Assembly: GCF_026210795.1 (NCBI RefSeq) | Contig: NC_089435.1 | Span: forward strand, 4,836,001 to 4,900,000 | Reading direction: 5' to 3' | DNA length: 64,000 nucleotides | From: Rhizophagus irregularis | Lineage: Eukaryota | In this document: positions 25,433-63,175 of the stretch, one piece after another | Layout: every line of letters begins with the position of its first letter | How positions within the stretch are numbered: the first letter of the stretch is position 1 | Made by a program: the position numbers and the translations under genes | The notes under the pieces: generated by a model | What the model saw: the letters and a program-made list of their open reading frames with translations, nothing else | Told to the model about the DNA's origin: nothing | Databases searched by the model: none

Positions 25433-25814
25433 CACCCAATCCAAATGATCGACATAGTTTATAAGCTGAAACTTCGTGCACAAAACCTCAGCTAAGAAAC
25501 TGCCCATGGGCAGATTTGCCCATGGGATTTGATTGGCTAATACTTAGTTGGTTTATATCGGCTAAATAAAGTAATTCTATAATTTCTGAATGCAGATTTG
25601 CCTATAAACCAGCATGCGAGGATTGCATTGATATAAATTTTGTACTACCTAATAACCAAAAAAAGTCAAAAAAATTTTTAAGGTTACACAGTAATTCTGA
25701 CTGAAGTTGAAATCATTATAGCCAGAATTAAGCTAATTCTGGCCAACCAGTTTCTGTCTAATAATTCGTCCAATTAAATTCCATCAATTCCTTTACCCAA
25801 TGCGCAGTAATTTC

Positions 25815-29700: not shown

Positions 29701-30188
29701 AATATATATACCAAATTAATACACAGCTTGTTGGATTGTATTGAGATGTATTAAATGGTAGGAGTTTTATACCTTTAGGAATAACAAATAATAAGATATT
29801 AACATTTTTTTGAAAAGAATTTTTTTTTTTTGTAGTATTCTTAAATATTTCTAAATACCCATCTATTGATAATAAATACCACTATTTAACAATTTAACAT
29901 GCTTTAATGAGACAAAGCTAATAAGTTATAATTGATTTTTCTATTTACTGGATTATGATAAATTAATGCAATTTATAATATTTACATTTATAATGCTAAC
30001 TAAATTTACAAAAACAGACATAAATGTCTGTTTTTATAATTCTAACCAAAATTTAATTCTGGCCAAATTTTGCTGGGCGAAATTATCTTAATTCTGGCCA
30101 AATTAATGTGTAACCTCAAAAAATTTTTGCCTTTTTTATAGTTATAAGGTGGTACAAAATGTATGTTAGTGCAATCCTTACTGTTGAG

Positions 30189-30572
30189 TATAGGTGTCGT
30201 CGAAATTAATTACGGATTTTACCACGGTTACGGCACGTGCCGCATTGCCGACCGTAAAAACCGTAAAATTTTATTAAGGCATTAAGTTCGGCCAGAGTTA
30301 AATGATCTTCGCGATAATTTCCTTTTTTGGAATATGGTGTAACCATTGTGTAACTCGATTCTCCATTTTTGATGGGAAGCAAAATTTCCTTTTATGGAAA
30401 TCTGTGTAACGTCACGTGATATAACAACAAAATTCGGCCGGCATTACCGGCATTACCGGCATTATAAACCTATTTACGGCATTACGGATAATTTACGGAT
30501 TTCGCCGAATTAATTACGGTATAGCCGAAATGCCAAAATTGCCGTAATTCATGAATTTCGACGACAAGTATA
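30189..30572. mobile_element. hAT MITE, 8-bp TSD CTGTTGAG, present only in the right foldback arm
   Basis: ctgttgag|TATAGGTGTCGTCGAAATT...AATTTCGACGACAAGTATA|ctgttgag. The empty site is visible in the left arm near 27132-27140. Confidence 0.92.
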
Positions 30573-33500
30573 CTGTTGAGTTTAGAATAAATATCCAGTC
30601 AAAAGTTATAAAATTGCCTTATTTGTAATTAAATGTTGGTAAGTTATATGAACCAATCAGATCTCGTAGTGCGTTGCAAGAACCACTTCACGTGATAAAG
30701 TACTCAATGGTATGCAGGTAACCAGTTTTTGCAATAAATAGAACGATTTGGCCAGAATTATATTTAATTCGGACCGGTGGTCAAACAATATAATTTATAA
30801 GCTGAAAGTTTCTGCACAAAATTTCATTTAAGAAACTGCCCATGAAATTTGATTGGTTTATATAAAATGGACAATTTTTGTCAATGATTTGATGAAATTT
30901 GATTGGTTTATATAAAGCGGACAATTTTGTCCATGATTTGATGAAATTTGATTGGTTTATATAAAGCGGACGAATTTTGATGAATTTTGATTGGCACATA
31001 TAAAAGCGGACAATTTTGTCGTGATTTGATGAAATTTGATTGGCTTATATAAAGCGGACAATTTTGTCCATGATTTGATGAAATTTGATTGGCTCAATAT
31101 AAAGCGGACAATTTTATCCGTTGATTTGATGAAATTTGATTAGGTTCATATAAAACAGACAATTTTGTCATGATTTGATGAAATTTGATTGGCTCATATA
31201 AAATGAACAATTTTGTCATTGATTTGATGAAATTTGATTGGTTTCATATAAATAAAACGGACAATTTTGTCAGCTGATTTGATGAAATTTGATTCGGTAC
31301 CGTATAAACGGACGATTTTGTCAGCTGATTTGATGAAATTTGATTGGCTCATATAAAACGGACAATTTTGTCCATGATTTGATGAAATTTGATTGGCTCA
31401 TATAAACCGGACAATTTTGTCAATGATTTGATGAAATTTGATTGGCTCATATAAACCGGACAATTTTGTCCATGATTTGATGAAATTTGATTGGCTCATA
31501 TAAAATGGACAATTTTGTCTATGATTTGATGAAATTTGATTGGCTCATATAAAACAGACAATTTTGTTCAGCCAAATTAACTTAATTCTGGCCGGTTACT
31601 TTAATTTTGGCCAGAAATTACTGCACATTAGGTAAATGATTTGATGAAATTTGATTGGTTCATATAAAAACGGACAATTTTGTCCATTAGGTAAACGATT
31701 TGATGAAATTTGATTGGTTCATATAAAATGGGCAATTTTGTCCATTAGGTAAATAATTTGATGAAATTTGATTGGTTCATATAAAACAAAAATTACTGCG
31801 CATTGGGTAATAAAGGAATTGATGGAATTTAATTGAACGAATTATTAGACAGAAACTGGTCGGCCAGAATTAGCTTAATTCTGGCTATAATGATTTCAAC
31901 TTCAGTCAGAATTACTGTGTAACCTTAAAATTTTTTTTGACTTTTTTTGGTTATTAGGTAGTACAAATTTATATCAATGCAATCCTCGCATGCTGGTTTA
32001 TAGGCAAATCTGCATTCAGAAATTATAGAATTACTTTATTTAGCCGATATAAACCAACTAAGTATTAGCCAATCAAATCCCATGGGCAAATCTGCCCATG
32101 GGCAGTTTCTTAGCTGAGGTTTTGTGCACGAAGTTTCAGCTTATAAACTATGTCGATCATTTGGATTGGGTGATTTCTAAATAAAGTTGCACTTCGTTAA
32201 AAAAAAAAATATATAATAATATATATTTTGGATAGTATCATACGTATTTGGAGATTTCAGTCGACTGCAGATCGATAATAATGTGAGATATAAGCATATA
32301 GTAAATATTTTCGTTAAAAGATTTACACATATTTGGTACATTATATATTTAAAGAAAAAAATTTATTTCATCATTATATTATTTTCATATTTATCATTAA
32401 ATATAATAAAATAACAATTAACTATTAATTTAATCTTGTATTATTTTTTGTTATTAAAATTCTCCTCTCTAACAGCTTGAAGAATTTCATTTTTCAAATT
32501 TTGGCCAATTTCTTGTTTAATGGCTTGAAGAATTTCTTCTTTTAAAAGTTGTGATGATATCCTATTATTATTAGGATTAGATGTTGAAATTACTTCTTGC
32601 CCATAATTAAAATTATTAGTATTAACTATTGCAGGAGCTGGAATTGTTGGTTCGAATGGTTCGTGATCACTAGTATTTTCATTTTGGAGCGTTTGCATAA
32701 TTTCTTGCCCATGATGACAATCATTGACTGGAATGATTATTGGTTCATGGTTGGTTGTATTTTCATTTTCAGGTGCTAGAATAATTTCTTGCTTATGATA
32801 GTTATTCTTATTAATTATTGGAGGTGGAATTATTATTGGTTCATAGTTGGATATACTTTTATTTCTAGATATTTGGTTAATTTGAATAGTAGCTTCTTGC
32901 TCATTACTATTGATATCTTGTTCATAATTATGAATATTCCTTATGATAGGGAGCTCCTTTTCTTCTTGACTGTAATCATTATTATTATCATTTTCATGAA
33001 TAGTTTTTTGTTTATTTTTATTCCATTTATATATCAAGAAACTTCCAACTGATAATAAAATGCTACTCAATAAAGATCCAACAACTATACCAGCTATATT
33101 GCCTGAATTATTTGGTGGTGATGAAGAAGAAAGTGAAGATGAAGGTGAAGGAGAAGGTACTAGTGAAGGTGGTGGTAATGGTGGCAGTGTTGATGGTGGT
33201 ATTGGTGGTGGTGGCGATGGCATTTTTGGATCAAATATCGTTGTCCATATATATTCCTCATTATTACTAATATCAAGCAATAATATATCACTTTCAACTG
33301 TTTTATCATAACCAACTCCTATTAAATCAAATTGTTTTTGTTAAAACTAGTTAATTTGCTTAAGTAATAGTAAGGAGTATTATATTTACCAAATGATACA
33401 ACCATATATTTTCCAATTACATCTGCTTTATGAAAAACTCTAGGTCTTGGGATTTTCCCAGAAATTTTTGGAATGTACCAATTATAATTAGCTAAATCTA

Positions 33501-34369
33501 ATACGTAAAGTGTAGTATCTAAATATCCAGGATTTATAAAATATCCTCCAAAAATTATGATTCTTTTACCATCTAAACCTGTTAAAATATAATGGAAATT
33601 TACCATTACTGACTACTAATATTAATCTTTTAATAATAATCGTAGACTTCTCATTTGATTACATACCTAGAATAGTGGTAAAAGCGCCTCTATTAGAAGG
33701 GATTTTTCCTGACGTTACCTAATTTTAGCAATAATGTTATTTATTACACAATTTTTAATATATTTATATAATAATAATTTATATAATTTACTTTTGTTTC
33801 CCAATTGTCATTGATCGTATCATATATATAAACCTAAATAAATAACTTTATCTTAATTAATTGATTATTAAAAAAATTTATACATTACAAAATTTACCTC
33901 ACTTAATGTTAAAGCGGTACCTTGACCAATATTTAATGATTTTGTATCAAATATAATTTCATTACCATTCCTACCACCTAAACAATAAGCGTTCATTAAT
34001 AAAATAACAAAACATATTTAAATAAATATATAACATAGAAATTACTCTCTTACCTATATAAATAATCTTATTATTGGGTAATAAAGTGGCACCATATCTA
34101 TCTCTCGGAGTTGGTGCATTAATTATACTTCCTTTACCCCAGTTAAGATTTATTGTATCTAAAATACACTGGTCGAAATAGTCCAAATCGGCTAGAAATT
34201 GGATGTCCGATTTTAGGCTGAATTTGGTGATAAAGATGGCCGATTTATTAATTTAGGCAAAGTTCCGATTGGCAGGCCGATCAACGCTGATCAGAATATC
34301 CAAATTGTATCTGAATTGCTTAGTATTTTTGATCCGAATTGTTTAAAAAAATATATTCATAAATTTACC

Positions 34370-43610: not shown

Positions 43611-44588
43611 TCCGATTGGCATCAATCAGATGTGCTGATTTGTAATGTCAGTCGATTTTGGTCTGATTTTTAGCTGATTTTCCATATGTCTGATTTTTTT
43701 GATTTCGACTAGTAATAAGCATTTCACCTCCACCCCATAAATACATCCTTCCGTCGTTATTAATAATGCCTGTTAAACTCCATTTTCTAATTGCATTAAC
43801 TCCAGCTATTTTTGGAATACTTCACACAACACTTTGTGAATCAAATGCATATACCAATGCCATTGTTTGATCAGTTGTGAGTCCTCTGTATAAAAATAGT
43901 GTATCATTATTTGGACCACCTTTAACTGATATTGCAGAAGAATGAGGTGGAACCATATTAATATTTGATAAATCTTGCCATGATAATTCTTGAGTATTAA
44001 ATGGTACAGAAACATCAAGGTAAAAAAATTCATTTATTTGTTTTTTGTTTAAATCATATCCATCCAAAATATATAATTTATTATCAATGAGTGTAGCAGT
44101 ATGACGACTATATACATTTGGTTTAAAGGGCGTCATTTGACAATTTACTTTAACCAATGCTTGAAGTAATATCCATAATATGAAATAAACCAAAGGATTT
44201 CTTGACATAATCGTAATTTATTTAATAGTAGAAATGAATAATATTAATATTTAAGAAAAAATATTTATTCACTTTTTAAAAAAAGAATTTTACGGTATTT
44301 AAATTTTTAGCATTACACTTAGCAAAAACATGGTTGCATAGAACGGATTATAATATTCAAGTATTTATTTTTCACAACAATATAATTAATGCACACCCAC
44401 ATACCCTATGCAAATTTATTAGCACAATTTCCATATGTGTTGCATAAAATCATAAGATAATGATTCAATAATGCTAAAACGTTACCCAAATAATTAAATT
44501 AATTTTTTGGCTTGAAAATACGCTGTGCAAAAAAGATGATCCAATAAGAAATAAATTGTTACGATGTTTGTGATCAACAATTAATTAA

Positions 44589-44839
44589 CCCTCATATCAA
44601 ATAATTCGATAGATTTTTTTGTGCCAAAATGATGATCATATCCTGGAATGCATTAGATCATTGACAATCATATCTTAAAATGAAGAATGATGAAAAATTG
44701 TGAAAAATTGTGCGTTTTTATGGATTAGTTAATGCATTTTTATGGATTAGATTTTGCATTTAATTTAACCATAAGTCCAAATTTGGATGAAAAAGTCAGA
44801 TAATTTTATATATATGTTAGTATAGCGAAGCTAACGTTT
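44589..44839 (+). mobile_element. Terminus of a TTAA-CCCT (piggyBac-like) element, copy 1; LINE target
   Basis: ttaa|CCCTCATATCAAATAATTCGAT..., homologous to 62689-62457 in reverse orientation. Ends at TAGCGAAGCTAACGTTT. Confidence 0.7.
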
Positions 44840-45291
44840 ATTTAAAAATAATTTTATTATAAATAATATTTTTTTAATGAAGGAAAATAATGTTTCAATA
44901 GAATTAGATAAATTGGATATTTCCAATTTGAATAAAATAATAGGTGGGCATGAATTAATTATAAATATAATTACACCAAAAGTTTATATAAAATATTTGA
45001 AACAATTAAGAAAATATAAATTAATGTTTCTAGATCAACTAACTACATTAAAAGGAGATTATTTTTTTAACTTTTTGGCAATTTAAACAACGACGTTTTG
45101 TTGGAAATTTAAGATCAAGTAATATTACCCCAAAAATTTTTTCAATATTAAATGATATTACAATAGAAGATAAATATACGAATTTATTGAAACCACGTTA
45201 TCGGTATAGTAATGTAATTAATAATTTAAAAGGTTACGAATTAATTTCACCAAATGAATGTAAGAAAAAACAATTTATAATGTTTTGGAAT
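44840..45291 (+). mobile_element. 5'-truncated, 3'-deleted fragment of the same LINE as 58266-62456
   Basis: Near-identical (about 3 differences seen) to the reverse complement of about 60411-60861. Confidence 0.92.
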
Positions 45292-46220
45292 ATGTAATAG
45301 CAAAAGGTAAGTGAATTTAATGGATTTAATAATTTTATAATAATATTACTAATATAATACTTTATTTATTTAGATTAATCAATGATTTGGAATTCTTTAA
45401 AATAAGAAACAAGGCTATAGCTCCATTTGTTTATTCACGAATAGTATCTCTTCAAGCTTTTTTATCATTAGGAACCAGGAATCCTCCAATTTCAAATGAA
45501 ATATTCCAATTATTAAACGAAGAAAATTAAGATATTGCATCTTTTGTTTCATTATTTTCTAGAGCTTTTATATTGGCAAATGAAAAATGTGAGAAACATA
45601 TATCTCATCATCCAGCTTTATTATTTTTCAAAGCAATACAATGTTTTGATCCAAGATTTATTCAATCTAATTCATCTAATCATAATATGGAAAATTATAG
45701 AATTATCAAAGAATTTTATCTTCCTACTGATACTTTAATACAAGAATGGGTTATTTACTGTGGACTTAATGAATCTATTGAAGAGTTTGATGATTTGGAT
45801 TTGTATTGGCGAGGTAAAAAGACATATATTACCAGAACTTAGTTCACTGGCTTTAATATATATATGGTTGTGGTGTAAATATTGAACGTAGTTTTTCTAG
45901 TTATAAAAGCATTTTATCAGATAGAAGAGTAGCGCTTAAAGAAGAAAATATTCAAATGCTTAATTTTCTTTATTTTAATCTTAGTAATAATGATGATTAT
46001 AATAATGAATTGATGATTTATGAATAATATAAATGTATAAATTTATTACTTAATTGTAAATAAATAAATAAAATTTGTATAGAATATAAATTATTAAAAA
46101 GTTTTCATAATCGGAATTATGGTAATTCTGGCTGAAATTATGGATCACGATTTTCACGATTTTTGTGATTTTTCACGCCTGATTTTTGGGCCATCACGAC
46201 GTCAAATCCTGGACACCCTA
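45292..46220 (+). mobile_element. 3' part of a hAT transposon (C-terminal dimerisation domain pseudogene plus terminus)
   Basis: DLDLYWRG..PELSSLALIYIWL..NIERSFSSYKSILSDRRVALKEENIQML. Ends GGACACCCTA after TCACGA subterminal repeats. Confidence 0.8.
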
Positions 46221-47889
46221 CTATCGATCTGCATCAAAGTCACGTGATAGTAACAGTAATTCGTATTACATTTATCACGAAAATAAAGTGTATACGTGGA
46301 TTTAAAGTTTATATGTTTAATTTTAAAGTAATTTATTCAAAATAAATATTAACTCAAAATAACGAAACAATACAAGTAAATAAATACTAATTCATTAATC
46401 ATAATAAAAAAATAAAATATTGGAGCAGTAATCCCTAGGGAATAGATAGGGGCCAACTTAGGTTACACAAACTAACGGATTATAAATTTGAACTGAAGTC
46501 TTAATAAAATCAGTTACACAAAAAAAACTATATTAAATCGTGCAAAATTTTTAGTTTTTTTTTATTTTTTTGATATGCGCATATAAAAGAGTAGCTGATT
46601 TTAAAAGTTAAGGTCAACAACTTGAGCTCTAATGGATGGTGCAATTTTTATTAAAATTGGTCTACTGTAGCTTTTTAAAGTTCGCTTTCTTTTTTAAAAT
46701 AATATATAGGTAACATTTATTTCAATCATTACGTTTGAAAGTGAACAGTAAACTTTATTATTTTTATCAAAATAATTTCTCTACATGTTTTTGTCTATTT
46801 TCCAACAAAATTATAGTTTATGATGTAAACATTTGTCTTTTTAACATAGCCTCTTCACAAAATTGAGTTTCTTTTTTGAGATGATCAAAAATTAAAGGTA
46901 TCAAATTTTTTTTTTGTTTAATTTTAGCATTAATATTATTTCCAAATACCCAAAGTAACCACTGTAATTCTGATACTTGAATTATCTTTGAAAATGCTTT
47001 TTCAGCACCATCCAGCTGTGCTCAAATTCGAAGCTGTACTAAACCAAGTAAAAGATCTTGTGGAATATTGGCTTTCTTTATCGAAGAAAATTTATTTTCA
47101 CTTTTTGGGAGGGTTTGTGTATCATTGTAAAATGCCTTCAAATTCTCACAAAGACTTGAAGTTCCTTTTTCAGGAATAAGATCATTAAACTTTCGCCATG
47201 ATTTTTGTCTGCTTTTCATGTAGATGGAAATAATACGTTCATAAAGAAAAACTCTTACATCATCTTTTAGTTCTTGACTTTCATCTTTTGATTCTTGATT
47301 TTCATCTTTTGTTTTATGAGTCAAAAGTTGCTGACTAGCAAAATCTAAAAGTGAGTTGAAAGATTGAAACAATGGTAAGTTGCAAAACAAACTATTATGT
47401 ATATATTGGAGGATATTTGGCCCAAATTCTTCATATTTAAAAGAATTAATGATTCCATTTTATACATAAACTCTCATCACGAAGTTAAACTAAGCATTTA
47501 CCAACCGTTTATTAAATGCTTTAAGAATATTTAATTTAAGCGCTTATTAAACAAGTTTCAACGCAGCTTGTATTCGATAAGCATTATTTTTTTATTGCTA
47601 ATTGAATAATAATATTATGTATTAAATTTGCATTAGAAATTAGTATAATTAAAATACTTAAATTAATTATATAATAAATAATAGTATATTATGCTATTTT
47701 AATATTGATATTTATTATTATTTTACTATTCAATTTTATTATTATATTTATACATATTGTTCTGTTATATTACATATGATATATTTTTATATTACAACTA
47801 ATTAAATTTTTCAACACTTCCAAAGACCCTCCCTGCCATTTAAAATTAAAAGATTTCCAATTATTTAACGAATTTTCATGCATCCAGAG

Positions 47890-49675
47890 ACCAGGTTGTC
47901 TAATAAAAAAGAGAATGAAATTAAATAAATAAAACTAGTCAAAAAAAATACTTCAGATTCCTCTTACCAAAATTCTACGCTTCCAAAGATCTGGTCATCT
48001 GGTCATCTGGTCATCTAGAAAAAAAAAAGATAAAAATCAAATGTTAGTAAGATGTTTCGTTAAAAGAAATAAATCAAAGAAACTCCAATACTTACCGAAA
48101 TTGAATTACCTAAATCCAACATGTTCAGACCCGGAGAACCAGAATCCAAGATCCGCCTAAAAAAAATAATAATGAAATGTTAATAAACGTTTCATAAAAA
48201 TAAAAAATAAAAAAACCCATTGAAAACAATGTAGCTATCTATTTTTTTGATGTATTACTATTAGGACCTGTTTTTCATTTTCAAGTGTATTATTATGTTT
48301 ATTATCCATATCTTTATTAAAATTACCAATAGAGAACCAGAGAACCGGTCACCTAAAAAAAAGAAAAAAGAGAAACCAAAACGTTAGCAAACGTTTTGTT
48401 AAAAAAAATTTTTTAAAGAAAAACAATTACCAAAATCTCGCGTGTCCAGGCCCATCTAAAAAAAGAAAGAACGAAATATTAGAATACATTTCATTCGTTT
48501 CGTTAAAACAAATAATAGCGAAAAAATAGCTCACCTAATCCAACGTGTTTTCTATTATCCCATCTTGATTTTCATTGTTTTTAGTCGTGGATTGTAACGA
48601 AATGATTTCATTCAAATAATGCATGCCATCCAGGTCCGAAGAGCATGCCATCTAAAAAAAGGAAGATAACGAAATGTTAGACAGTTTGTTAAATAAATAA
48701 AATTAAAAATTTTTTTTTGATTTCTTACCGGAATTCAAGATCCGTCTAAAAAAAGAAAATAATGAAACGTTAGTAAACGTTTCGCTAAAATAAATAAAAG
48801 AAAAAAATAAGATAAATTGAAAAAAACTTACGAATCTGCGTCAAAAAAGGTTTGAAAAAGCTGACTAAAAAAAAGAAATAAGACAAAACGTTAATAAACA
48901 TTTCATTAAAATAAATAATAAAATAAAAGAAATAAATTACTTACCGAAATGTCATGTCCAAAGAGCCGAAGACCTGCCTAAAAAAATAAAAAACGAAATT
49001 GTTAGGTTAACATTTCGTTATAATAAAGATGTTTAAAAAACAAAAACAAAACAAAATATATACAATAATCTGCGCGTACAAAGACTTGAAGAAAAAGAAG
49101 CTGTCTAAAAAGAGAAAGATAAATGAAACGTTAGTAAACATTTCATTAAAGAATTATAAAAAATAGCCCCTCTCTTACCAAATTCAAGTACTCAAATCCA
49201 AGCCATCTAAACTTCAGAAACTAGAAAGATCTGCCTAAAAAAGAAAAAGAAACGAACTATTAGTATAGTTCGTTAAAAATAAAAAATTTAGTAAAAAAAA
49301 ATTAAGACTTACCGAATTCCTAAGCCATCATCAATTATTTTAATAAAAGGAATGTGACAAAAATTTGAAGAGCTCTAAAAAAGAAAAAAAAGTGAACTGT
49401 TAATACAGTTCGTCAGAGTAGTTAAATTAAAGAAAATAAAAAAATATACCGAAAACTTACATGTCAAAAGAAACCAAAAGACCGTCTAAAAAAAAAAATG
49501 AAACTGAATTTCCACGCATCTAAATATACAAAAAAAGAACAAACTGTCTAAAAAAAATCAAAAAAATGAGCCATTAGAAACTAGCTCGTTAAAATAAATA
49601 TAATTGAAGAAAAAAAATAGTTTACCGGAAATGTTGTGTCCAATGAGACTGAAATAACCGTCTAAAAAAGAATTT
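47890..49675 (-). repeat. Array of about 14 related intron/micro-exon units
   Basis: The minus strand repeats GTAAG/GTATA/GTGAG donor, TACTAAC-like branch point and poly-T-AG acceptor, separated by 17-117-nt exon-like segments. Confidence 0.78.
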
Positions 49676-50059
49676 TAGATTTTTTTTGTAGGTGATTTTA
49701 ACTTTTTTTTTAAACAGAAGAGGGAAAGGATGAAAAAGAGGAAAGAACGAATTTGAAGAAGAAAAAGATTGAAGGAAATGGAAATGGAGAGAATAAAAAA
49801 AAGAACAAAAAAAAAAGAACGAAGGGAAGGAAAATGGGAAAAGGAAATGTAATGTAAATCCCGATAGATAAGCTTATAAAAATTATCAATTTGATAATCT
49901 ATATCACGTGGTACCTGTAACACTAATTTAACAAAGTAATTAGAACTCCAACTTGACCTGAAACTTTTTTTCGGTCGAATCAGGTCAGGTGACCTGTATC
50001 GAACTGCACTAACCTGATCTACCTGTTTGACCAAACCTGATTTTTTCAGGATGGGTAAT

Positions 50060-50735
50060 TTTTCATAAATAAAAGTGAAAAACGCCGATTGGCTTTTTTT
50101 CATAAAAAATAATGAAAAAATGCCACAAACTGGCATTTTTCATAAATAAAAAGTGAAAAAAATGCCATAAACTGGCATTTTTAATAAATAAAGTTAAAAA
50201 ATGCTGGAATGGCGTTTTTTTTTTCAAAAAAATAATGAAAATGCCATAAGCCGGCATTTTTCATAAATAGAAGTGAAAAAACGCCAGAATGGCGTTTTTT
50301 TTCATAAATAATTATGAAAAAATGCCACAGCCTGGCATTTTTCATTAAAAAATGTGAAAAAACGCCGAAATGGCATTTTTTTTATAAATGAATATAAAAA
50401 AAAATGCCATAAGTCAGCATTTTTCATAAAAAGAAGTGAAAACCGCCAAAATGGCGTTTTTTCATAAATAAATATGTAAAAAATGCCATAAACCGGCATT
50501 TTTCATAAATAAAAGTGAAAAAACGCCGGATTAGCATTTTTTTTATAAATGAATATAAAAAAAATGCCATAAGTCGGCATTTTTCATAAATAAAGTGAAA
50601 AAATGCCAGAATGGTGTTTTTTCATAAATGAATATGAAAAAAATGCCATAAACCGGCATTTTTCATAAATAAAGTGAAAAAATGCCGGAATGGCGTTTTT
50701 TTTCATAAATAAATATGAAAAAATGCCATAAACCA
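50060..50735. repeat. About 40-bp satellite of short palindromic units, inside an ACCTGA-rich hAT-like MITE (about 49941-50830)
   Basis: Alternating GGCATTTTTCATAAATAAAAGTGAAAAAACGCC and GGCGTTTTTTCATAAATAAATATGAAAAAATGCC units. The flanks carry GACCTG repeats ending GAGCACTA. Confidence 0.85.
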
Positions 50736-53700
50736 GGGTTGAAACTTTAACCCGACCTGGTACTAGATCATGGATATTTCAGGTCAACCTGATCAGGTCA
50801 CCTGAAATCACCTGACCTGTTTAGAGCACTAAGTCAAAGTTTATATTATTATACTAAAGGTACTTATGAAAAGCCTCTAAGGCTTAATATAAAAAATAAT
50901 AAAATTTAAATGCTCATATTTTATACCTTTTTAATGATAAATTCAAATGCTTAATTGGTATTTTTTTTCATAGCAATTAATAAGTATTAATCTAAAATAT
51001 TTTTTAAGCATTTTGTTAAAGCAGCAATTATAAAGTATTTAATGATAAATATTTAATTTGTAATCTATTATAATGATAACTAAATACTTATTTTAAATAC
51101 AAATAGGTATTCATAAAACATTAAGCATTCAGTAAATACAAAATTTAAGCATTTATTAAATAATTTGTGTTTGATGAATACAAGTCTAACATTTGATCAA
51201 CTTCGTGATGCTAGGAATTTTTGTCCAGGAATCACATTTGTTATTTGAGATCAAACATCCTTCTCATAGATTACTTGTTTCGAATTGAAAATTTCAAGAT
51301 AGGTACAAATATCTTTAAACTGGAAGTGTGATTTTGTTACGTGATCATTTTTAGTTAATTTATAAATAATCCATCCAACGATATAGGAAAATTTTGATGC
51401 TTCAGCTGGTTCCAAAATAATAATATTCTTTGGCGTTATATTACAGTCTGCAGCAAAGTTAGTTGGATTTTTTTCATCGCTTTTTTTGAATGTATATTTA
51501 ATTACATTTTGCAAAAGTAAATATACAATAAGCCTTAAGACTGAAGAATCATGCAATTTAGTTTTTGCCAAAAATTCCTGATACCAGCTACCAGAACATT
51601 GATAGTTATTCAAACGGAGTTCAAAGGTAGAATTCCAAATAGTTAACCATTGAACCCCTATTTTCTTTGGAACAGATTCACAAGCAATTTTTTTAATATT
51701 ATCTTTCCACAATTGTAATAATTCATTAATAGAATCCAAATAAAGTATAACTTCAATAAGATTTTGTCATTCAATTTGAAGCTGATAAATTCTAAGATTT
51801 TCATAATCAACATTATCATTAAAGGACTTTAACGGAAATGTAAATCTTCCCATAGTTAAATTATCAGTAAAAAGATTTTTAAAGATAGTACAAGAAAATG
51901 ATGATAATTGTAACAATCGCATATTGTATTTTTGAGAAAGATCATTTTCATTTTCTTTGTTTTCTTCATTATGTAATTTTTTTCTTTTCGGTAATCTCTA
52001 AAAATTAAATAAAAAACATTTAATTAAATTTTATTTATAATTAAAAAATTGAAAATACTGTATATACCTTCTTGTTAAAGAATTAATACCAATACCAGTA
52101 GTATTATTAGCTATTCCATAATTAATGCTTTTTATTTCAGATGAAACTAATGCTGTAATTTGATATTTATTTAAAGTATGTCCATATGATTTTAGTGTTT
52201 GTGTGGAAGAATCTCCTCCAAGTTCACGAATTACACCAAAAAGACCTTCAAGTATATCTTGTGAAATACATCGTGACTGAACTATTGAACCAGGATATTT
52301 TTTCAAAATAAATTCTAATAGTCCAAGAAAACCATCAATTGATAAAATCAAATCAAATTGACATTGTGGTGAGATCCATTCCATATGTCCTGTCTTTTGT
52401 TTATTCCTATATATAAACCAATTATGAATTTCTTTTAAAGTATTAACACGCGGATCTTCTATAGAGCAAAAATTGATTTTACTATGCATAATCTGGCGAT
52501 ATTTTCATGCATATTTAATAAATTCCTTAAAAAAAAAAATTGGAATTAATAATACCTCAAATATAAATAAATAATATTCTTTAATAATAACTTACTCTTG
52601 TTCCTTCTGATATATTTTTAAATTTATTGATAGATGCTAATGCATCTTCAACTTCTTTTGATAATGTATGTTCAGCAAGGTCAACACGCATTTTACTCCA
52701 TGAAGTAAGCTATATATGTCGCTTTGTAAGTTTTGTAGCTTTTGCTGTTGCATGTTGATTTGTATATTCATAAACACCTTTTATATGTTTCCAACTAATT
52801 TCCTTTCCATTAATCATTATTTCTCTAGCATTTTTTTTACCAGTGTGACTCTTTGATAGATTATTTCTAAGTTTTTTAAAAACGTGTATTGAATCACTAA
52901 TAAAGAACCACTCTTCGTCTCTTCCCCAGTAATAGGATTATTATAAATAGGTCTAAGAAATTTACTAACATGATAACTAAAAACTTTCCATCTTCTTTTT
53001 GCATATATTCCTTCTACAATTTCTACAGATAATGTTATTTCAATCAGATCAAAATTCAATAATTTTTCCTAAATACCATTGATTATCATCTGGATTTTTA
53101 AATTCACATAACTTATTAACATTCCATTCTAATTTTAAAGGCATTGGTGGATGAATATAAGCTCGATCAATTGTAATTATTTCAGAATTATTATGATTAA
53201 GCTGACGTACAATAAATTTTGATCTTTCAGAATTACTACCTATGATTTCTGCTGCATAAAATGATTTTTTAGTTTTATCAAAATTAATTTCTACCAAATC
53301 ACCAGAAGACCAGGTTGATGCATACCAATCAAAACTCTTTATATGAGTTCTATTTTCTCCTGCACCATCACAAATTGAACCATATGTATGTATGCCAATA
53401 CATTCTAATTTTGCTGCAAGGTTGAATATTAAAGTATTTAAATTATGTGCTGTTAATATATTAATACCATAATAAGCAATTGGAAAGGCAAAGTTATGTG
53501 TTGTTGAGTGCCAAACAATTTGATGAACCTGAGTTGCAAGTTCATTCTTTTGCTTTTGCTTTTCAGATATAGTATTAGATAATGAATTATTTTCTCCTGA
53601 TATTTCACATTGACACTGCAAGGCAAATGATTGATAATCCTGCATTTCATTTTCAAAATCTAAATATCCAACATAACAGTTTTCACGTTGACTCCAAAGA

Positions 53701-55724
53701 AGACCTTTTTAAATTAAATTATTAATTAATTTATTTATATGTAAAATTAAAAATAAAATAAATAAAATTCAATACCTTTTTGAATTTTAAAGGAATCATG
53801 TGAAAAAAATCCTACTCGTCCATATCCCCAAATTTTGTTTGTTGTTAAACTTTCTAACATTTGAGAAGCAATTTTATCTTGCCATCCTGAATGCTGTTCA
53901 CTTTCATTTATATAACTTTTAAGGGTAGAAATTGATGGTAAACGCATTATTGTTTTCATTGCATTATAGGCAGCATTTCCAGATCTACTATATACAGATA
54001 TTGCCCAACGTAAAAACCTATAAAAAAAATTAGTTTTTTTTGTGAAATAAAATAAAGTCATTACTTAATTAATTAATCTTACATTGGATGGTATCTTACT
54101 CCATTTGGTTTTTCACTTTGAATACAAATTAGTTCTTGAAAAATAGGATGAAAATTTGAAATATCTATGTTTTTACTGGTAACATTTTCAGTAGCTGTAT
54201 AAGCAATTTTTTCCATCTCATCAGAGATTTCGCCTCCTTCTTCTTCTATCTTCTTCTGTAAGCAAGTTCTTATATTTGTAATAGTTAAATTTTGTTCTTG
54301 AATTATTTTGCATTGATGATTAATTTTTTTTATAAGAATTTCTTTAGAAGCATGTATAGTTTTCACAGAATTTACACCAGATAAAAATCTTCTATGAATT
54401 TGTTGTATTATTTTATGCACCTTTTAACAATTTTCACATACATTACTATTTTTTACTACAAGCATGCAATTTATATGTCGATATACTTCATCTGATTGAC
54501 CTTTATTCTCCAAAATAGCCAAAACAGCATGCTCTTGTGTATTGCTAACTAATTGATTTCCTCTAATACAAACTATATTTTCAAAACCTTGAATTTTAAA
54601 TTAATAATAAGTAAATAATAAATAAAAATATAAATACTTCAAATTATAAATTTATATTTACCAATGGTACTTTGTCTATAATAAACTTTAAGAAAAAAAA
54701 TATGTTTGATTTCATTAAGAGTTCTTTTCATTGCTTTAATTGGAAATGGAAGATCTACTTCTGGTAATATTTTATTAAATACCCAAACTTCGTAACTAAA
54801 TAAAGCACCTTTAGCAAAAATTATCATCATCTTTTCTGATTTTTTTTTTTTATTAAAAAAGTGAAGTTCAAGACCTTTATTAATTTCTTGTACAATGGTT
54901 CCTATAAATTTTCCACCTGGTAAAATTTCTTTTTGAATTAATAAAAAAATATTTTGAATATCTGCGCAATTAGAAGTTTTTCAGTATGGCGTATAATTAG
55001 ATTTACATAAAATTGATGCAATCGGTATACTAGTAGGATTGGATTCTAAAAAAATAGTTGTAAGAGCTGATTTATATCCTTTAAATAATCCTTGTTTTTT
55101 TAATCCAGTTATCCATTTGGAAAATGTTTCATACTTATGATCATTTTTAATACTATATACATATGCTTTTTTTTCTTTCACATCATATAAAAGTATACCT
55201 TCAAAGTATTTATCCAATGTTGGAAAAAAGTATACTTTTTTTCCTTTAAGTTCTGGTCAAATATGTACAAATTCTTGTAATGCTTCAACTTTTTTTTGCC
55301 GATTTATTGAAGTATTAGTTTTTTCATGAGAAGTAGAAGGCTATTTTGAAATAAGAATTATTAATATAATAAAATTTCTATTTAAAAATAACAACAGCAT
55401 CAATTTTTTTCTTGTTACTCACCATTTTTAACGTTTATCTTATAGTCTATAATCAATTAAAGTCGCTAATTCAAATTATCTTTAGAACTAGAAATGCAAT
55501 AACGATAAAATTCATATCACGTATAGCCACATATTGTATCATCTTGGTGTAATTTAATAGTGTCACAAGAAATTGACTTATTAGCAGGGGAGTAGGGGAG
55601 CTACCATTCGATTCATTCATTGTGTTATAAGATAATAAGAACCATCTAAAAGCGGAAACCAAATAGTAAAGCTTTATTCACTAGTAAATTATTATTTAAA
55701 AAAAAAATTATTATTAAAAAAAAA

Positions 55725-57429
55725 TCTATATAACTAAAAAAATTTGTCTGACGTTTGGATTTATAGTCTCTGTGTAAATAATTTAAATTGTGTAATTTGA
55801 AATACAATTAAAACCCGTGATAAGCCTCCGCCTGATCTATTTATGGTCAAAAACTATTCGATTCGTGTGCATTCCAATCAACTAATCCAATTTCAGTTAA
55901 TAAAATTTTCCTTTTTTTCGGAAATTTCCCTTTTTTTCAAACTGATTTCCTTTCTTTATTCTTTTTCTTCCCCCCAAATTTTTTTATTATATTAAATATA
56001 TTTACAAAATTATTATTTTTTTTAAAAAAATCAATATAACAAACATATCAGATATAGGAAAATTGACCAACACGAGTAAGATTTTTTCAATTAAATTAAA
56101 TGCTGGATAAATAGTTTGATTTTCAAATTCATAAAAATCAATTAATTATAAAATATATAAAAATGTCAATTTTTTTTTTAAAGAAATTGTTGATTTAATA
56201 ATAGATTATTATAACCAAATCCATATCCAAAATTGTCTAAATAACTATCAGATTTTTGAATAAAAATTTTAATTCAAATGGTTTAGTTAAATTAAGTACC
56301 AAAATAATAATAAATGAAATGAATAGATTCTAATACATTTAATTATTCAAATATTTTTTTTAAGTTGGTTATAAGTTTAAGATTGACGTAATATAAAATA
56401 AGAAATAATTATAAAATTTATAATTAATTAAAAAAAAATATTTGTAGTATTTTCATAATATTAAAGTTTTACAAAAATATTTCTAAAAAATTAATCAAAA
56501 AAATGAGGGTGAATGAAAAAATAGGGAGATAAAAGGATAAAAGAAATGAAGGAGAGTGAGGGAGAAACGAAATGGAGCAAAGGGTGAGCGAAAAAAATAA
56601 AAGGAACGAAAAAGATCAAGTCGGAATGAAAAAAAATGAAAAAAATGGAGGGACGAAATGGAGCAAAGGAGAATAAAAAAAAATGAAAGGAACAAAGGGT
56701 AATGTAAAAAGAAGTGGAATGGGAAAAAAATGAAATGATAGAGGATAGTGTAAAGGAACAAAAAAGATGAAACGGGAATGGAATAAAAATGAAAGGAACG
56801 AAGGGTAGTGTAAAGGAATGAAAAGACGAAGAAACAAAGAGGAAATAAAAATAACAGAAAAAACGAAGGAAGGGAAGAATAAAAAGAGCAAAAAAAATGA
56901 AGAAACAAAAAGAAAACAAAAAAATGGAGAAGGGACGGAAATGAGATAAACAGTAAAAACCAAACCCATAAAATTAAAAGGAGAAATAAAGTTAGTAGGA
57001 AACGGAAATTACATGTAATAAATAAACAAAAACAAAAAAATAAAAAACATACCTTAGTAGTTATAAAGAAGAATCGAAAGACCTAAAAAGAATGAATTCA
57101 AAATGTAAAATGATCAGCACAAATTTAGCCAATAAAATTTAATGTGAAAAATTATTAAATCGCCCAGGGTGAAAATACACTCAAACGTCAAATCATTAAT
57201 ATAAACTATATTATTCTAAATATAATTTATATCATTCTAATATTATAAATATAATTTAATACATGTTATTTATTATTTTTTGTTAACTAATTATTACCAT
57301 ATTAAATTCCTAATTATAAACAAAAAACTACTGTAACCATCTTTAATTTACTTAGTATTGCATTACATTATAATACTAAATTTTTCTATTTAATAAACAA
57401 ACTCATTTGTCCCGGTGCATGACTGCTAG
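55725..57429 (+). mobile_element. Non-autonomous Helitron-like insertion
   Basis: a|TCTATATAAC...CCCGGTGCATGACTGCTAG|t (TC start, CTAG end, A/T target, no TSD). The flanks rejoin to a local repeat unit seen again near 57645. Internal TGACGTTTG/CAAACGTCA inverted pair. The 3' hairpin is weak. Confidence 0.6.
56495..56990. repeat. Purine-rich low-complexity tract (similar tract at 49715-49850)
   Basis: GAA/AAG-rich + strand that produces spurious Phe-rich minus-strand ORFs in all three frames. Confidence 0.85.
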
Positions 57430-58265
57430 TAATAAACTAATACTAAATTGTACTATAATCTAGATTTTTTGAAGATATAATAATATTATTAAGATTAATC
57501 ACTTTTTTAAGAACGATAAATCAGCTGTAAAATAGTGATATAGTGATCTGCAAATTTGTATACATCATAAAAAAAAAAATTATTAAAAAAAAAAATTATT
57601 ATTACGATAAATCAGCTGTAAATAGTGATATAGTGATCTGTTAAAAAAATAATAATAATAAACTAATCCTAAATTGTACTATAATCTAAATTTTTGAAGA
57701 TATAATAATATTTATTTTTAATTTTAATAAATATTTAAAAGTTACTGTAAATTTTATTAGTAAAATATTTTTAGTGGAGTAAAATTATTATTAAAAAAAA
57801 AATCAAAAATTTATTAATTAAGAAAACATTCATTTTGAAAATTTTAAAAGTATTTTTCCTTTTTTAAATTTTATGAATTCTTTGATAAAAATTTTTTTAC
57901 GAAAAGAGAAAAAAATAGATCAAAATGGAAAACCATTTCCTTTATATTTTTTATGAATTTTTTTAATTTTTTTTTTCAACGAAAAAAAATTTTTTACAAA
58001 AGAAAAAAAATAAATTAAAAAGGAAACCCATTTCCTTTTTCATCTTATAAATTTTTTTGATTTTTTTATGAAAAAAAATTTTTACAAAAGGAGAAAAAAA
58101 AATTAAAAAGGAAACCCATTTCCTTTTTTCATTTTTATAATTTTTTTTTGATTTTTTTTTCAACAAAAAAAAAGTTTTTTACGAAAAGAGAAAAAATTAA
58201 AGCAAAAATGGAAAGTTATTTCCTTTTTCAATCAAAAAAAAATCTAAAAAACGTTAGCTTCGCTA

Positions 58266-58296
<31 letters not shown>

Positions 58297-61200
58297 GTTC
58301 AACTCATATATTTATTAATTTTAGAATAAAGATACAAAACGCGAGTTACAAAAATAAAGCTCTAGCTAACTAGTTACTAAATAGTTGTGGGGGGGATAAG
58401 AATTAATTGCTCTACGAGACGATCTAAATCCCACTGCCGACCCATAAACAACTTTCACCCATCTACTTGATGGACTACTGGAAGACGTATCAACCTTAAT
58501 AGCGTTTATAAACTACACTAACACCTACTGCACCTTTAATTAACTACACTACTACTAATAAATTAAAAATTCTATAAACATAATAACAAAGAGCTACGCT
58601 ATTATGGTACACAACAATTATAGTAATCAATTATTTTTCCTCCATATCTAATGTAATTAACTAATCCTTCTGTATCATTATATTTTTTATCTATAGGAGG
58701 TTTTTTTGTTGTTATACATTTTTCTTTACCATATTGTTCTTTTAAAACATTTTTTGTAATTCCTAATGCGATATTAATTTCATGATAGACAGAACATCGT
58801 TCATTCCAAAAATCTCTAATTAAATTGAAAGAAATTTTCCGGAAATTATATAAAATTTCCTTTGTTTTTTTATAATTTTTTAATTTTCCATTAATAAATT
58901 TACATAAACTTAAAGGAATTATTCCTTTTATTATATCAATACTTGTAAAAAAATCTTCTCTAATTGAATTATCCCAAATATAAGGTAAATCTGGCAAATC
59001 AATATCTTCTACATATAATGCTTGATTTTCTATATGATCATTAATACTATCAATTAAAATTTGTTTTATCTGTTGAATTAATATAAAATTGTCTTCTGAT
59101 CTTTGGTTACATGTCCAAACATGATTAAATTCTTCTTTTTCTATATTACATATTGGACAAAAACGATCTTTAAAAATTGAAAAACATGATTTTTTAATAT
59201 GTTCTATTGTAGGTATTTCTTCAATAAGAAATTGAATCTTTTTTCGCTTTAACTTAGATTCATAAAAATCTGTATGCATAGTACCTTGATCTCCTTGTAG
59301 TAGATAAAATGTAATTTCCCAATCTACTTGTAGTTTTCGATATTTATAATTTCGATTAAGATTTAAAAATTGTTCCAGATTAAAAATATTTGTATATATT
59401 TTTAAAAATTTTCTTAAACTTAATTCTATTGGTACACCATTCCATTTAGGAAAAAATTTAATTAATGATAATGACGTTGTTTTAATATTAATTCCTAAAT
59501 GTTGTATGTAATTATATTTATCTTTCAAATGTTGATTAAATATCGAAAAATTAAGATCATTTTCCTGAACAAGTAAGATATTAACATCTAATGATAATGT
59601 TTTAATAATTTCAAAAATTATAATCCACATATAATTATGGTGTTTTAATTTAAAAATTTGTCGACTCGTTAATGAAAAAAAATTATTAATTCTATAATTA
59701 TTATATGTTTCTATTAATGATTTATCTTTTGTAAGAATAGTTATTCTACTATTTTCTGGTAATATAATTATAGAACATAATAATGCTAAAATTGATGCTT
59801 TTGTTACTGATATATAATTATTATAACTTGAAAAAAATTCTAATATAAATGTCGAATTCAAATCAAATGTACTAAAACCAAAAATTGATTCAGCTTTATC
59901 TGTGCCTATGTTTTTTGCTGATCCATCTATATAAGTTAAAAATTGTTTAACATTTAATGATAGTATTAATCTTTGAGAATATAATAAATCTGATTTATTT
60001 AAAGATAGATCTATATATTTATCAATTATATTAACATTTTGATTCTGAAAATTCATTATAAACCTTGAGTCCATAACTTGATAATATTGTGGATTTAAAT
60101 TTAAATGTTGATTTATTTCCATTATCTGAAAAATATCTACGTATTGAGTTTTTGGTAGAACTAATGTTTTATTTTTTTCAAATTTATCTGTAAAATTTTT
60201 TGTTTTTTCTCCTACTAAAAACATATTAGATGTTTTAAGCTTTAATAAACATTTTTTTGATTCACGAGTATCATTTGCAAAATTACAACCAGAACAAGTT
60301 TGAACTTCCATATAAATACTTTGTTTATCACTTGTGACAATATAATGTCTAATAATGTATTCTTCTCCCTTTTTTTCTTCATCAAAAATTCTTCCTATTT
60401 GTAATCCATTATTCCAAAACATTATAAATTGTTTTTTCTTACATTCATTTGGCGAAATTAATTCGTAACCTTTTAAATTATTAATTACATTACTATACCG
60501 ATAACGTGGTTTCAATAAATTCGTATATTTATCTTCTATTGTAATATCATTTAATATTGAAAAAATTTTTGGGGTAATATTACTTGATCTTAAATTTCCA
60601 ACAAAACGTCGTTGTTTAAATTGCCAAAAAGTTAAAAAATAATCTCCTTTTAATGTAGTTAGTTGATCTAAAAACATTAATTTATATTTTCTTAATTGTT
60701 TCAAATATTTTATATAAACTTTTGGTGTAATTATATTTATAATTAATTCATGCCCACCTATTATTTTATTCAAATTGGAAATATCCAATTTATCTAATTC
60801 TATTGAAACATTATTTTCCTTCATTAAAAAAATATTATTTATAATAAAATTATTTTTAAATTTTGGTAAAAATACATTAATCTCTTTTTTTTGATATGGC
60901 ATATCTACTAAAGGACTTTTATCTAACCATAACTTATTTTGAATATCTATTATTCTAATTCTCATAATATCACCTAATAAACCTCTGTCATTTATTTGTA
61001 TAAAGAAATTATTTATCTTTGCTTGAATCTGATTGGCCCAGATAGAGCGTATATTATATATTAGATTATTCTCTACTATTGAATTAGGCGCTGTTGATGC
61101 AAATTTAAGTTTATTTTTAAACATTCTTCTATACGGTACCATCATTTGATTACATTCTTTTTCTGTAAAAATCGTTACTTGAGATCTATACTCTATTCTA

Positions 61201-62456
61201 GAAAGTATTATTGAGTTAAAAATGTAAGCCGTTTGTTTATCTGTAATAACTTTCCTTCTTAAAGTATTTGTAATTAAATTAAGAATATCATTTTTGCATT
61301 GATTTAATACAAATTTTCTATCATCATAAGCATTGAACCATACTCCTAAAATCCTAATTGAGTTTTCTTTTGGAACTGGAAATATACTAATTTTTTTATC
61401 TCCAAAATTAATATGAATTTTTTCTTTTTTTTCAAAATCATAATTCTTTGATCGTAAAAGTAATTCACTTTTATCCTTATTAATCTGTATATCATTTAAT
61501 GTATAAAATTCATCTGCAATAGATAAAAGTAATTCCAATTCATGTTTGTTTCCTGATATTATATTAGTATCATCCATGTAGGCTAAATTAGAAATATATA
61601 GCTTATGTTCCTTTTCGATATTCTCATAAATATTTACAATCTTTTTTGTTGATAATTTGTATCCCAAGTGATGTTTATTTAATTCGCATAGAAGAGGGTC
61701 ATAGTATATACACCACAAAAGAGGAGAAATTACTTCCCCTTGATCAATTCCTACAAGAACATCATATTCAGGGGTTAATCCTCCAGCTGTGAATACTTGA
61801 TTTTTCCTATTTGTAAATAGACTTAATATTAATTCAATAAAATTTAATGGAATTTTTAATCTTAGTAGAGCTTTACTTAACATATTTATATTAACTTTAT
61901 CATACGCTTTTGACATGTCTAATGCCAATAACCAAAGTTCTTTGTTATTTTCATTAGCATCATTAATTAATTCTTTAATAATTCTTATTGGTTCAAATGT
62001 TGAACTTAAAGGAAGGCCTGCAAATTGATTACCCTTTAAAATATTGTATTTCTTCAAGATTTTTGATAATCTTTGATTTAATATTGCTACCATGAGTTTT
62101 CGTACTGTTTCAAGCAAAGTTATTGGTCTGGTATTAACTAAATCACATCCCCACGGTTTCGGCTTTGGTATGGGATATACATTAGCTAATCTCCAATCTT
62201 TAGGTATTTGTCCATGTTTAAAGATTCCTGATATCATTTCTTTAATTAAATTCAAATATTCTGGTGATGCATGTTTAATCATTTCATAAGTAATGGTTGA
62301 TGGACCAGATGCTTTATTATTTGGTAAATTATGTATAAAAAATTGCCATTCTTCATCAGTGATCGGTTCTAATATATTTTTATATATTTCTGGATTTATT
62401 TCATCTATAGGTTGATATTGATATTTCCAATTTTCTGGAATTTCTTTTTCTCTGTT
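58266..62456 (-). mobile_element. Young 5'-truncated non-LTR retrotransposon (LINE) with 28-nt poly(A) and 17-bp TSD
   Basis: TSD AAACGTTAGCTTCGCTA at 58249-58265 and 62457-62473, T28 at 58266-58293, and an uninterrupted ORF. Confidence 0.95.
58602..62456 (-). CDS. LINE ORF2 (5'-partial): reverse transcriptase, RNase H-like domain, CCHC zinc knuckle
   Basis: The frame is open from the truncation point (NREKEIPENW..KASGPS). RT motifs RPITLLE, LDMSKAYD, GIDQGEVISPLLW, YMDD and ILGVWF; RNase H-like YIDGS; CPICNIEKEEFNHVWTC. Confidence 0.93.
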   Translation of the reverse strand, partial: NREKEIPENWKYQYQPIDEINPEIYKNILEPITDEEWQFFIHNLPNNKASGPSTITYEMIKHASPEYLNLIKEMISGIFKHGQIPKDWRLANVYPIPKPKPWGCDLVNTRPITLLETVRKLMVAILNQRLSKILKKYNILKGNQFAGLPLSSTFEPIRIIKELINDANENNKELWLLALDMSKAYDKVNINMLSKALLRLKIPLNFIELILSLFTNRKNQVFTAGGLTPEYDVLVGIDQGEVISPLLWCIYYDPLLCELNKHHLGYKLSTKKIVNIYENIEKEHKLYISNLAYMDDTNIISGNKHELELLLSIADEFYTLNDIQINKDKSELLLRSKNYDFEKKEKIHINFGDKKISIFPVPKENSIRILGVWFNAYDDRKFVLNQCKNDILNLITNTLRRKVITDKQTAYIFNSIILSRIEYRSQVTIFTEKECNQMMVPYRRMFKNKLKFASTAPNSIVENNLIYNIRSIWANQIQAKINNFFIQINDRGLLGDIMRIRIIDIQNKLWLDKSPLVDMPYQKKEINVFLPKFKNNFIINNIFLMKENNVSIELDKLDISNLNKIIGGHELIINIITPKVYIKYLKQLRKYKLMFLDQLTTLKGDYFLTFWQFKQRRFVGNLRSSNITPKIFSILNDITIEDKYTNLLKPRYRYSNVINNLKGYELISPNECKKKQFIMFWNNGLQIGRIFDEEKKGEEYIIRHYIVTSDKQSIYMEVQTCSGCNFANDTRESKKCLLKLKTSNMFLVGEKTKNFTDKFEKNKTLVLPKTQYVDIFQIMEINQHLNLNPQYYQVMDSRFIMNFQNQNVNIIDKYIDLSLNKSDLLYSQRLILSLNVKQFLTYIDGSAKNIGTDKAESIFGFSTFDLNSTFILEFFSSYNNYISVTKASILALLCSIIILPENSRITILTKDKSLIETYNNYRINNFFSLTSRQIFKLKHHNYMWIIIFEIIKTLSLDVNILLVQENDLNFSIFNQHLKDKYNYIQHLGINIKTTSLSLIKFFPKWNGVPIELSLRKFLKIYTNIFNLEQFLNLNRNYKYRKLQVDWEITFYLLQGDQGTMHTDFYESKLKRKKIQFLIEEIPTIEHIKKSCFSIFKDRFCPICNIEKEEFNHVWTCNQRSEDNFILIQQIKQILIDSINDHIENQALYVEDIDLPDLPYIWDNSIREDFFTSIDIIKGIIPLSLCKFINGKLKNYKKTKEILYNFRKISFNLIRDFWNERCSVYHEINIALGITKNVLKEQYGKEKCITTKKPPIDKKYNDTEGLVNYIRYGGKIIDYYNCCVP

Positions 62457-62689
62457 AAACGTTAGCTTCGCTATACTAACATATATATAAAATTATGTGA
62501 GACTTTTTTATCCAAATTTGGACTTATGGTTAGATCAAATGCAACATCTAATCCATAAAAATGCACTAACTAATCCATAAAACCGCACAATTTTTCATAA
62601 TTTTTCATTTTAAGATATGATTGTCAATGATCTAATGCATTCCAGGATATGATCATCATTTTGGCACATCGAATTATTTGATATGAGGG
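62457..62689 (-). mobile_element. Terminus of the TTAA-CCCT (piggyBac-like) element, copy 2; host of the LINE (continues below 58249)
   Basis: ...TTTGATATGAGGG|ttaa. Homologous to 44589-44839. The far terminus was not found. Confidence 0.7.
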
Positions 62690-63175
62690 TTAACAATTTA
62701 TTAAAATAAAATCATCAGCAATTTGCACTTGTATAGATCATTATATAGTAATTAATAGTAAATTTATATATGACTTCAGTTCAAATTATGATCCATTAGT
62801 TTGTGTAACTTAAGTTGGCTCTGTATATTTATCTATCCCTAGGTAATCCTGCCTGAGTTTACTATTTTTAGTCACGTGTTTTGTTACCTCAAAATTAAGC
62901 CGTACCAGGTTGTTTATTTTTCTTTTTTTTTGTACGACAAAGACGTAAAAAAAAATTTTCAAAGTTCAACTCAAACTTATATAAATACTTTTGCTTTTTT
63001 TTACTTATTACAAGTTTGAAAAGTAATACTATGTTTTGTATTTTAAATGTTTTAATAATAACTATAATTCTTTTTTACTAATAAAATCTTTTTTTTATTT
63101 ATATATTATTTTAAAGACAATACAATTCTTTTTTTTTTGAAAAGCAGAGTTTTATAGTTTTTTAATTTTAAAAAG

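Follow-up and report, generated by a model that had tools for sequence, protein, structure and literature searches.

Evidence for repeated, site-specific insertion of a young LINE into a TTAA-bounded multicopy repeat of the mycorrhizal fungus Rhizophagus irregularis

Most target-specific families of long interspersed nuclear elements (LINEs) belong to early-branching groups with a restriction-like endonuclease (RLE), to Tx1 or to R1 (PMC4640811). Members of the Tx1 clade, described as found in animals (PMC4494074), target other transposons: Tx1 inserts in Tx1D, a non-autonomous piggyBac family (PMC4494074), Tx1-Mar in Mariner-N4 and Tx1-9_AMi in Harbinger (PMC4494074, PMC6719617). Here we describe a LINE family in a 64,000-nt stretch of Rhizophagus irregularis DNA (contig NC_089435.1, positions 4,836,001 to 4,900,000; 'the window', whose positions serve as coordinates throughout). 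This young, low-copy Rhizophagus LINE inserts repeatedly at one 17-bp site within the end of a dispersed repeat, and it likely does so by means of its own sequence-recognising endonuclease of the apurinic/apyrimidinic type (APE).

The window contains two copies of the host repeat end. Copy 1 lies at 44585–44839 (+), with TTAA at 44585–44588 and CCCT from 44589, and matches 62693–62456 in BLAST at 88% identity; copy 2, on the left of the larger LINE insertion, lies at 62457–62693 (−), where contig depth is, as a rough estimate, ~10–40x that of the unique-flank contig. The alignment begins exactly at TTAA|CCCT, outside of which the sequences around the two ends are unrelated. Inwards, after ~235 bp, both ends finish in an identical 17-mer that holds TAGC-GAA-GCTA and AACGTT (44823–44839, +, and 62457–62473, −, both exact matches), and then enter one LINE family at the same base, as originally predicted. 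The 17-mer occurs at only one other place in the window, 58249–58265 (−), where it forms the right-hand copy of a target-site duplication, identical to the left-hand copy at 62457–62473; the duplication is possibly 18 bp long, the host base preceding the 17-mer being A too. The host repeat resumes beyond the LINE at 57740–58248 (−; inner boundary approximate) with four ~90-bp units found by repeat search, at high contig depth to ~57780, and this same sequence directly follows the 17-mer at empty sites in one public run (X13, see below). The host repeat is thus dispersed and multicopy; its TTAA|CCCT end is sharp, its subterminal repeats are short, and a ~90-bp array lies past the target.

LINE copy 2 spans 4,163 bp at 58294–62456 (−) and comprises a reverse transcriptase (RT; RVT_1, E = 4e-26, alignment), a degenerate RNase H, a CCHC knuckle and a 3′ untranslated region with an AATAAA signal at 58311–58316 (−), followed by a poly(A) tail of 28 nt at 58266–58293 (−). 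Next to these 28 A stands the 17-mer, in a perfect 17-bp duplication, as had been proposed. Its open frame encodes 1,296 aa (58602–62492, −). Contrary to the original prediction, this copy is not complete: it is truncated just 5′ of the RT, and no endonuclease is encoded in the window. LINE copy 1 is a 453-bp fragment at 44840–45292 (+), 5′-truncated at LINE position 60861 and 99.3% identical to 60861–60410; the same joint occurs in public run X1. It runs into the inside of a hAT transposase remnant at 45293–46220 (+; Pfam hAT dimerisation, E = 7e-4 at 45857–46027, frame translations), which is outside the targeting system, and because its 3′ part was lost in this way it shows neither poly(A) nor a second duplication. 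The two copies therefore have LINE entry points at 60861 and 62456, 1,595 bp apart, close to the ~1.6 kb first reported. Between the host ends we counted 8 substitutions and 3 indels over 235 aligned columns (3.4% substitutions), versus 2 substitutions and 1 indel over 452 columns (0.4%) where the LINE copies overlap (8/235 versus 2/452, Fisher p = 0.004). The host is thus more diverged than the LINE, as claimed at the outset, and not equally so, as expected if copy 1 were a deletion derivative of one host-LINE composite. A non-LTR-type RT, poly(A), duplication and variable 5′ truncation, all hallmarks of target-primed reverse transcription, are present.

Further insertions were found on comparing the locus with contigs from 7 of 24 listed public runs (6 samples, 6 studies; X1 counted twice). 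Joints were analysed in X1, X7, X13 and X3 against a reference of the LINE plus 64 bp of host, with 24 of 49 loose ends inspected, and a wider contig comparison including X10 and X6 covered 15 of 46 joints and 24 of 851 loose ends. Five of the six joints in the first set link the LINE to the target, at LINE positions 58414, 59451 and 60534 (all X13, the last also in gene model P0118), 60860 (X1, corresponding to copy 1) and 61773 (X7 and X13); the sixth is a 43-bp internal deletion. Among the joints listed in the wider comparison, 59322 is joined to 62470 in both X10 and X6. The copy-2 junction (62456) is spanned by a contig in X6 and recurs in gene models P0002 and P0116, and in gene models P0085 and P0101 a host variant is joined to a more diverged LINE copy near 59088. 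Altogether there are eight distinct 5′ breakpoints, six of them outside the window, and all eight are at the 17-bp site: six at the end of the 17-mer (with 0–2 extra bases or 1–5 bases of microhomology) and two within it. Copies at unrelated sites, which would have spoken against targeting, were not seen: no young off-target junction occurs among the joints and loose ends listed. Moreover, the depth steps along the LINE in X13 are approximately explained by the on-target joints (29.2 + 18 + 23 + 15.2 = 85 versus 82.9, depth being a rough guide). Reading the X13 joints as splice events, X13 possibly being RNA, was rejected, since GT-AG does not bound the skipped segments on the LINE strand and the DNA run X7 has one of the joints too.

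Unoccupied targets, visible as loose ends before 62457, were present in all four runs (X1, X7, X13 and X3) and outnumber filled ones. In X13 they continue into the sequence found after the tail in copy 2, and in X1, X7 and X3 the sequence also goes on in other ways after ~16 bases. Relative to unique flank, rough contig depth is ~10–40-fold for the host and ~1.5–5-fold for the LINE, climbing towards the LINE 3′ end. Insertion sets vary between runs, and just 18 variant sites are listed in 4.2 kb of LINE. Since the sets differ, the duplication is perfect and variants are few, insertion continued after the isolates diverged. For 40–100 host copies in a genome that we take to be ~150 Mb, a random insertion would land 3 nt or less from the site with a chance of ~2–5 per million. 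A LINE has been considered target-specific when more than 20% of its flanks belong to one type of sequence (PMC4494074); here the figure is 8/8 identified young 5′ junctions, with the 3′ flank seen once and a longer copy, described below, outside the count. The two recent, sequence-specific insertions first proposed are thus extended to eight breakpoints at one site, with empty sites and run-specific sets. The insertions are independent, young, site-specific and repeated within the species, and we hold it very probable that they represent real site-specific insertion.

Used as a protein query, the part of P0085 that derives from the host retrieved only P0085 and P0101, and pattern scans of viral contigs and prokaryote genomes gave 0 matches. 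The metagenome pattern scan gave 75 loci (GC 35–57%), none flanked by the fungal host or the LINE; a repeat family unrelated to them accounts for many of these loci. This family (loci L001–L074, many in one metagenome assembly) is multicopy and of ~40% GC, contains internal repeats of GCTAA/TTAGC and has the identical 17-mer near its end, a coincidence as far as tested.

At the protein level, matches at 89–100% identity are R. irregularis gene models and one from R. diaphanus, and a protein search of viral contigs found no relative. The protein encoded in the window has an RT, an RNase H-like region and a C-terminal CCHC motif. In the RNase H-like region (59550–59960, −) the first Asp is retained and the other conserved residues of the relatives are gone, and Pfam RNase_H has no match in the window LINE protein; the domain has thus lost most catalytic residues despite an intact frame and a young family, whereas the relatives retain them. 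Full-length relatives are single proteins of 1,600–2,600 aa with APE, RT and usually RNase H: at E ≤ 0.001, 21 of the 24 scanned have an APE match and 20 an RNase H match. The top PDB matches of one of them (P0003) are human L1 ORF2 (1e-22), then R2. A loose end behind 62458 in X1 and X7, of which 30 letters were read, extends the open reading frame (ORF) in frame and matches the relatives, so that a longer copy exists. In RT trees (13 near-duplicates removed before the first, 26 hand-chosen rows in the second) the window row is sister to P0149, with 74–75% identity over kept columns; P0149 and all other aligned full-length neighbours have APE motifs. An APE-type endonuclease is accordingly predicted for the LINE, from its nearest relatives and the longer in-frame copy.

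The window row falls in a 14-row single-ORF group (98–99 in the Shimodaira–Hasegawa-like approximate likelihood ratio test, SH-aLRT), separate from zf-RVT-bearing L1-type rows, two of which carry a DQEKA motif that we take to be Tx1-like. These placements suggest that the LINE and its single-ORF APE-RT-RNase H relatives form a lineage distinct from L1/Tx1-type sequences. The Tx1 clade has two ORFs and is not known to carry RNase H; the window LINE has a fungal rather than an animal host and an RNase H-like domain. The Tx1-like character originally proposed thus applies to its way of working, in which it resembles Tx1L, and not to its RT, which groups elsewhere; the LINE is probably outside Tx1, a leaning only, as the trees include no authentic Tx1, R1 or Proto1 sequence.

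The host had been called a transposon. It is indeed a multicopy repeat, and the point at which the likeness of its two ends starts, TTAA|CCCT, is piggyBac-like, piggyBac ends having a TTAA boundary followed by CCY. No piggyBac transposase was matched by Pfam in the 48 frames scanned, no pre-insertion empty site of the host was found, and the search for a matching far end beyond copy 2 found none except copy 1 itself, inverted and 18.1 kb away. The host is likely a transposon with a piggyBac-like end, and the two facing TTAA ends may be both ends of one old nested element. A Rfam scan gave six weak, chance-level matches, none at the target, and the host is not an Rfam RNA gene. Helentrons/HINEs have 12–15 bp subterminal inverted repeats and a 3′ palindrome beside the end (PMC4067079); this identity was rejected, as a search for the inverted repeat pair was negative and the high-depth repeat runs on beyond the palindrome. 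A Crypton reading is a further possibility; the part of the Glomhopper description that was covered gives no TTAA termini. A second shared repeat (80%) lies close to both host ends, at 46425–46508 (+) and 62852–62763 (−).

The insertions would be explained by the following course of events. ORF2 would nick the bottom strand where the 17-mer begins on the left, on a T/A step or one base away from it, and reverse transcription would be primed on the poly(A) tail with at most one paired base. The top strand would be cut ~17 nt further on, within a T run, where the complementary DNA may often anneal via 1–3 T of microhomology, as the T-run microhomology at several 5′ junctions suggests, and most copies would finish 5′-truncated. 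The host, likely a TTAA-type DNA transposon end, would serve as a multicopy safe harbour. A sequence-specific APE domain is the most economical, and a likely, cause of the base-level precision; human L1, for comparison, cleaves TTTT/AA (PMC1950540). More tentatively, and with slightly less than even confidence, we suggest that an unnamed single-ORF APE-RT-RNase H lineage evolved strict specificity independently, outside Tx1 and R1, which would make this the first fungal case and a still-active element, a marker that transposition continues in mycorrhizal fungi.

Tethering is known among retroelements that target tRNA genes, and a similar device could operate here: a bound protein, such as a host transposase or a chromatin factor, would bring the LINE machinery to the repeat end, where a loosely specific endonuclease would cut the nearest suitable step. 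The distance between the site and a putative transposon end is indeed fixed, subterminal-like repeats surround the site, two of the eight junctions are atypical and the first nick was observed once. We nevertheless consider tethering unlikely, as six of the eight 5′ junctions share one base position to within 2 nt although the hosts differ by upstream indels, which fits sequence read-out better than the measuring of distance, and as purified Tx1L endonuclease alone nicks its own site almost exclusively in vitro (PMC1950540). Somewhat less probable still is that structure picks the site, the TAGC-GAA-GCTA hairpin (or a wider GTTAG..CTAAC palindrome) being extruded and nicked by the LINE or a host nuclease. 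The mini-hairpin d(GCGAAGC) is unusually stable, and the original prediction had made it the targeting signal; no stretch of the host is richer in GC than the target, both window strands together have just one other C(GNA)G loop on a 4-bp stem, and the 59322 junction, as we read it, lacks the hairpin loop and 3′ arm. Against this, each of the six stretches folded with a z-score of ~0 to −0.5 relative to shuffles (possibly because the folding parameters give no credit for the sheared G-A pair). The hairpin also sits on the strand that would be nicked second, so short a stem (4 bp) would hardly extrude from a duplex, and the motif was chosen after the fact. Our literature search found no connection between a GCGAAGC hairpin and retrotransposons. 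Beyond a rare motif at the site, a signalling role for the hairpin was thus unsupported. Another resemblance of the target, to an intron branch point and acceptor, was dropped as unproven: an array of ~110-bp units at 47900–49700 (−) resembles tiny exons, its introns having GTAAG donors, CTAAC branch points and T-rich AG acceptors, and the LINE target is in part like its branch motif; the two share the CTAAC core, but no array unit came within 7 mismatches of the 24-mer.

A quite different origin, which we rate as very improbable, would have one or a few ancestral host-LINE composites copied along with the host and then deleted from a fragile site, mimicking truncations. Copy 1 did undergo a 3′-side deletion, the copy-2 junction is common to several runs and gene models and reaches ~2x flank depth in X6, and the 61773 joint, where five letters fit either side, could have arisen from a copy-2-type composite by deletion at microhomology. 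Such a history conflicts with a host divergence ~8x that of the LINE between copies 1 and 2, with yet another host variant in P0085/P0101 and with empty hosts more numerous than filled ones; nor would deletions repeatedly stop at the last base of the duplication while their other end ranged over 4 kb.

Apart from the 61773 joint, several points weigh against insertion by a site-specific LINE endonuclease. The endonuclease of this family itself was never observed and is putative, from relatives. A single 3′ junction, on the side of the first nick, was observed, in copy 2, rows at poly(A) having been dropped from the contig comparison. The joints and loose ends listed are a subset, so that off-target junctions are possibly hidden, and the joints are supported by 20–37 letters on the short side. 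The 59088 junction is known from predicted proteins alone, run X1 is possibly the window's own source and so not independent support, the longer copy (X1, X7) contributes no 5′ flank to the junction count, and the metagenome, viral and prokaryote scans yielded no fungal copies. Finally, some loose ends on the 5′ side run into sequence other than the host, at 59400 (all four runs), 60179, 60695, 61401 and 62392. We read these, with less assurance for 59400, as short look-alikes or old relatives because the main contig is unbroken through each in at least one of the runs showing it, meaning fewer than 31 shared bases.

Elsewhere, the window is rich in other repeats. A decayed, intron-containing P-element/THAP9-like transposase (Pfam matches to TNP-like RNase H N, RNase H C and GTP-binding domains) occupies 51200–55300 (−). 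Nested inverted repeats at 25422–32185 have outer arms with internal arrays (25422–27142 and 32185–30571, 84%) around a 3-kb self-inverted block (27128–30193, 97%), and a 703-bp self-inverted palindromic block (97%) lies at 4262–4964. Dispersed, diverged pieces of a Kelch-repeat gene family are found at 9569–12335, 15453–16554, 20235–20468, 22550–23092, 32410–34166 and 43729–44520.

If correct, a specific APE element outside Tx1 and R1 would represent an independent origin of specificity, a new comparison for DNA reading by APE loops and a new natural site-specific insertion enzyme, at a time when site-specific LINE proteins are sought as gene-insertion tools. For mycorrhizal fungi, the insertions directly document recent retrotransposition, which varies among isolates and can be typed at a single site by polymerase chain reaction, and they offer an example of safe-harbour targeting in a repeat-packed genome. 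As to novelty, no fungal or mycorrhizal description of a target-specific LINE inserting into a repeat was found in our literature search, which left Repbase entries and subscription papers outside. The curated R. irregularis library has LINE/L1-Tx1 and LINE/I labels, and the available part of its text contains neither 'target site' nor 'nested' (PMC11075540). The claim of novelty thus holds for fungi, to this extent, and not for the insertion of a LINE into a DNA transposon, which is published for animals (PMC4494074).

The closest described system is Tx1L of Xenopus laevis, like our LINE an APE-type element (by prediction here) at one sequence inside a DNA-transposon-like repeat, Tx1D being called a piggyBac family and the window host having a TTAA|CCC end too; they differ in that Tx1L belongs to the animal Tx1 clade and our LINE to a fungal single-ORF APE-RT-RNase H lineage, and the target sequences are, as far as known, unrelated. 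The crocodilian Tx1-Mar and Tx1-9_AMi likewise prefer DNA transposons, and Tx1-9_AMi enters three Harbinger families at ~300 bp from their 5′ end (PMC4494074), compared to 235 bp here, but these are old families of the animal Tx1 clade, whereas the window LINE family is young, varies between isolates and belongs to another lineage. Elements of the R1 clade (R1Bm, TRAS, SART) are also APE-type and sequence-specific, and the I group, to which R1 belongs, is reported to have RNase H (PMC4640811); their targets are arthropod ribosomal DNA and telomeric repeats, in contrast to a window target with no Rfam match, and our trees had no R1 reference. Proto1, listed as RNase H-bearing (PMC4640811), and other RNase H-bearing APE clades share the APE-RT-RNase H layout, and families of the R. 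irregularis library carry LINE/L1-Tx1 and LINE/I labels (PMC11075540), all compared by description only; in the material covered no target specificity is reported for Proto1 or the library families, unlike the window LINE, whose eight breakpoints converge on one site.

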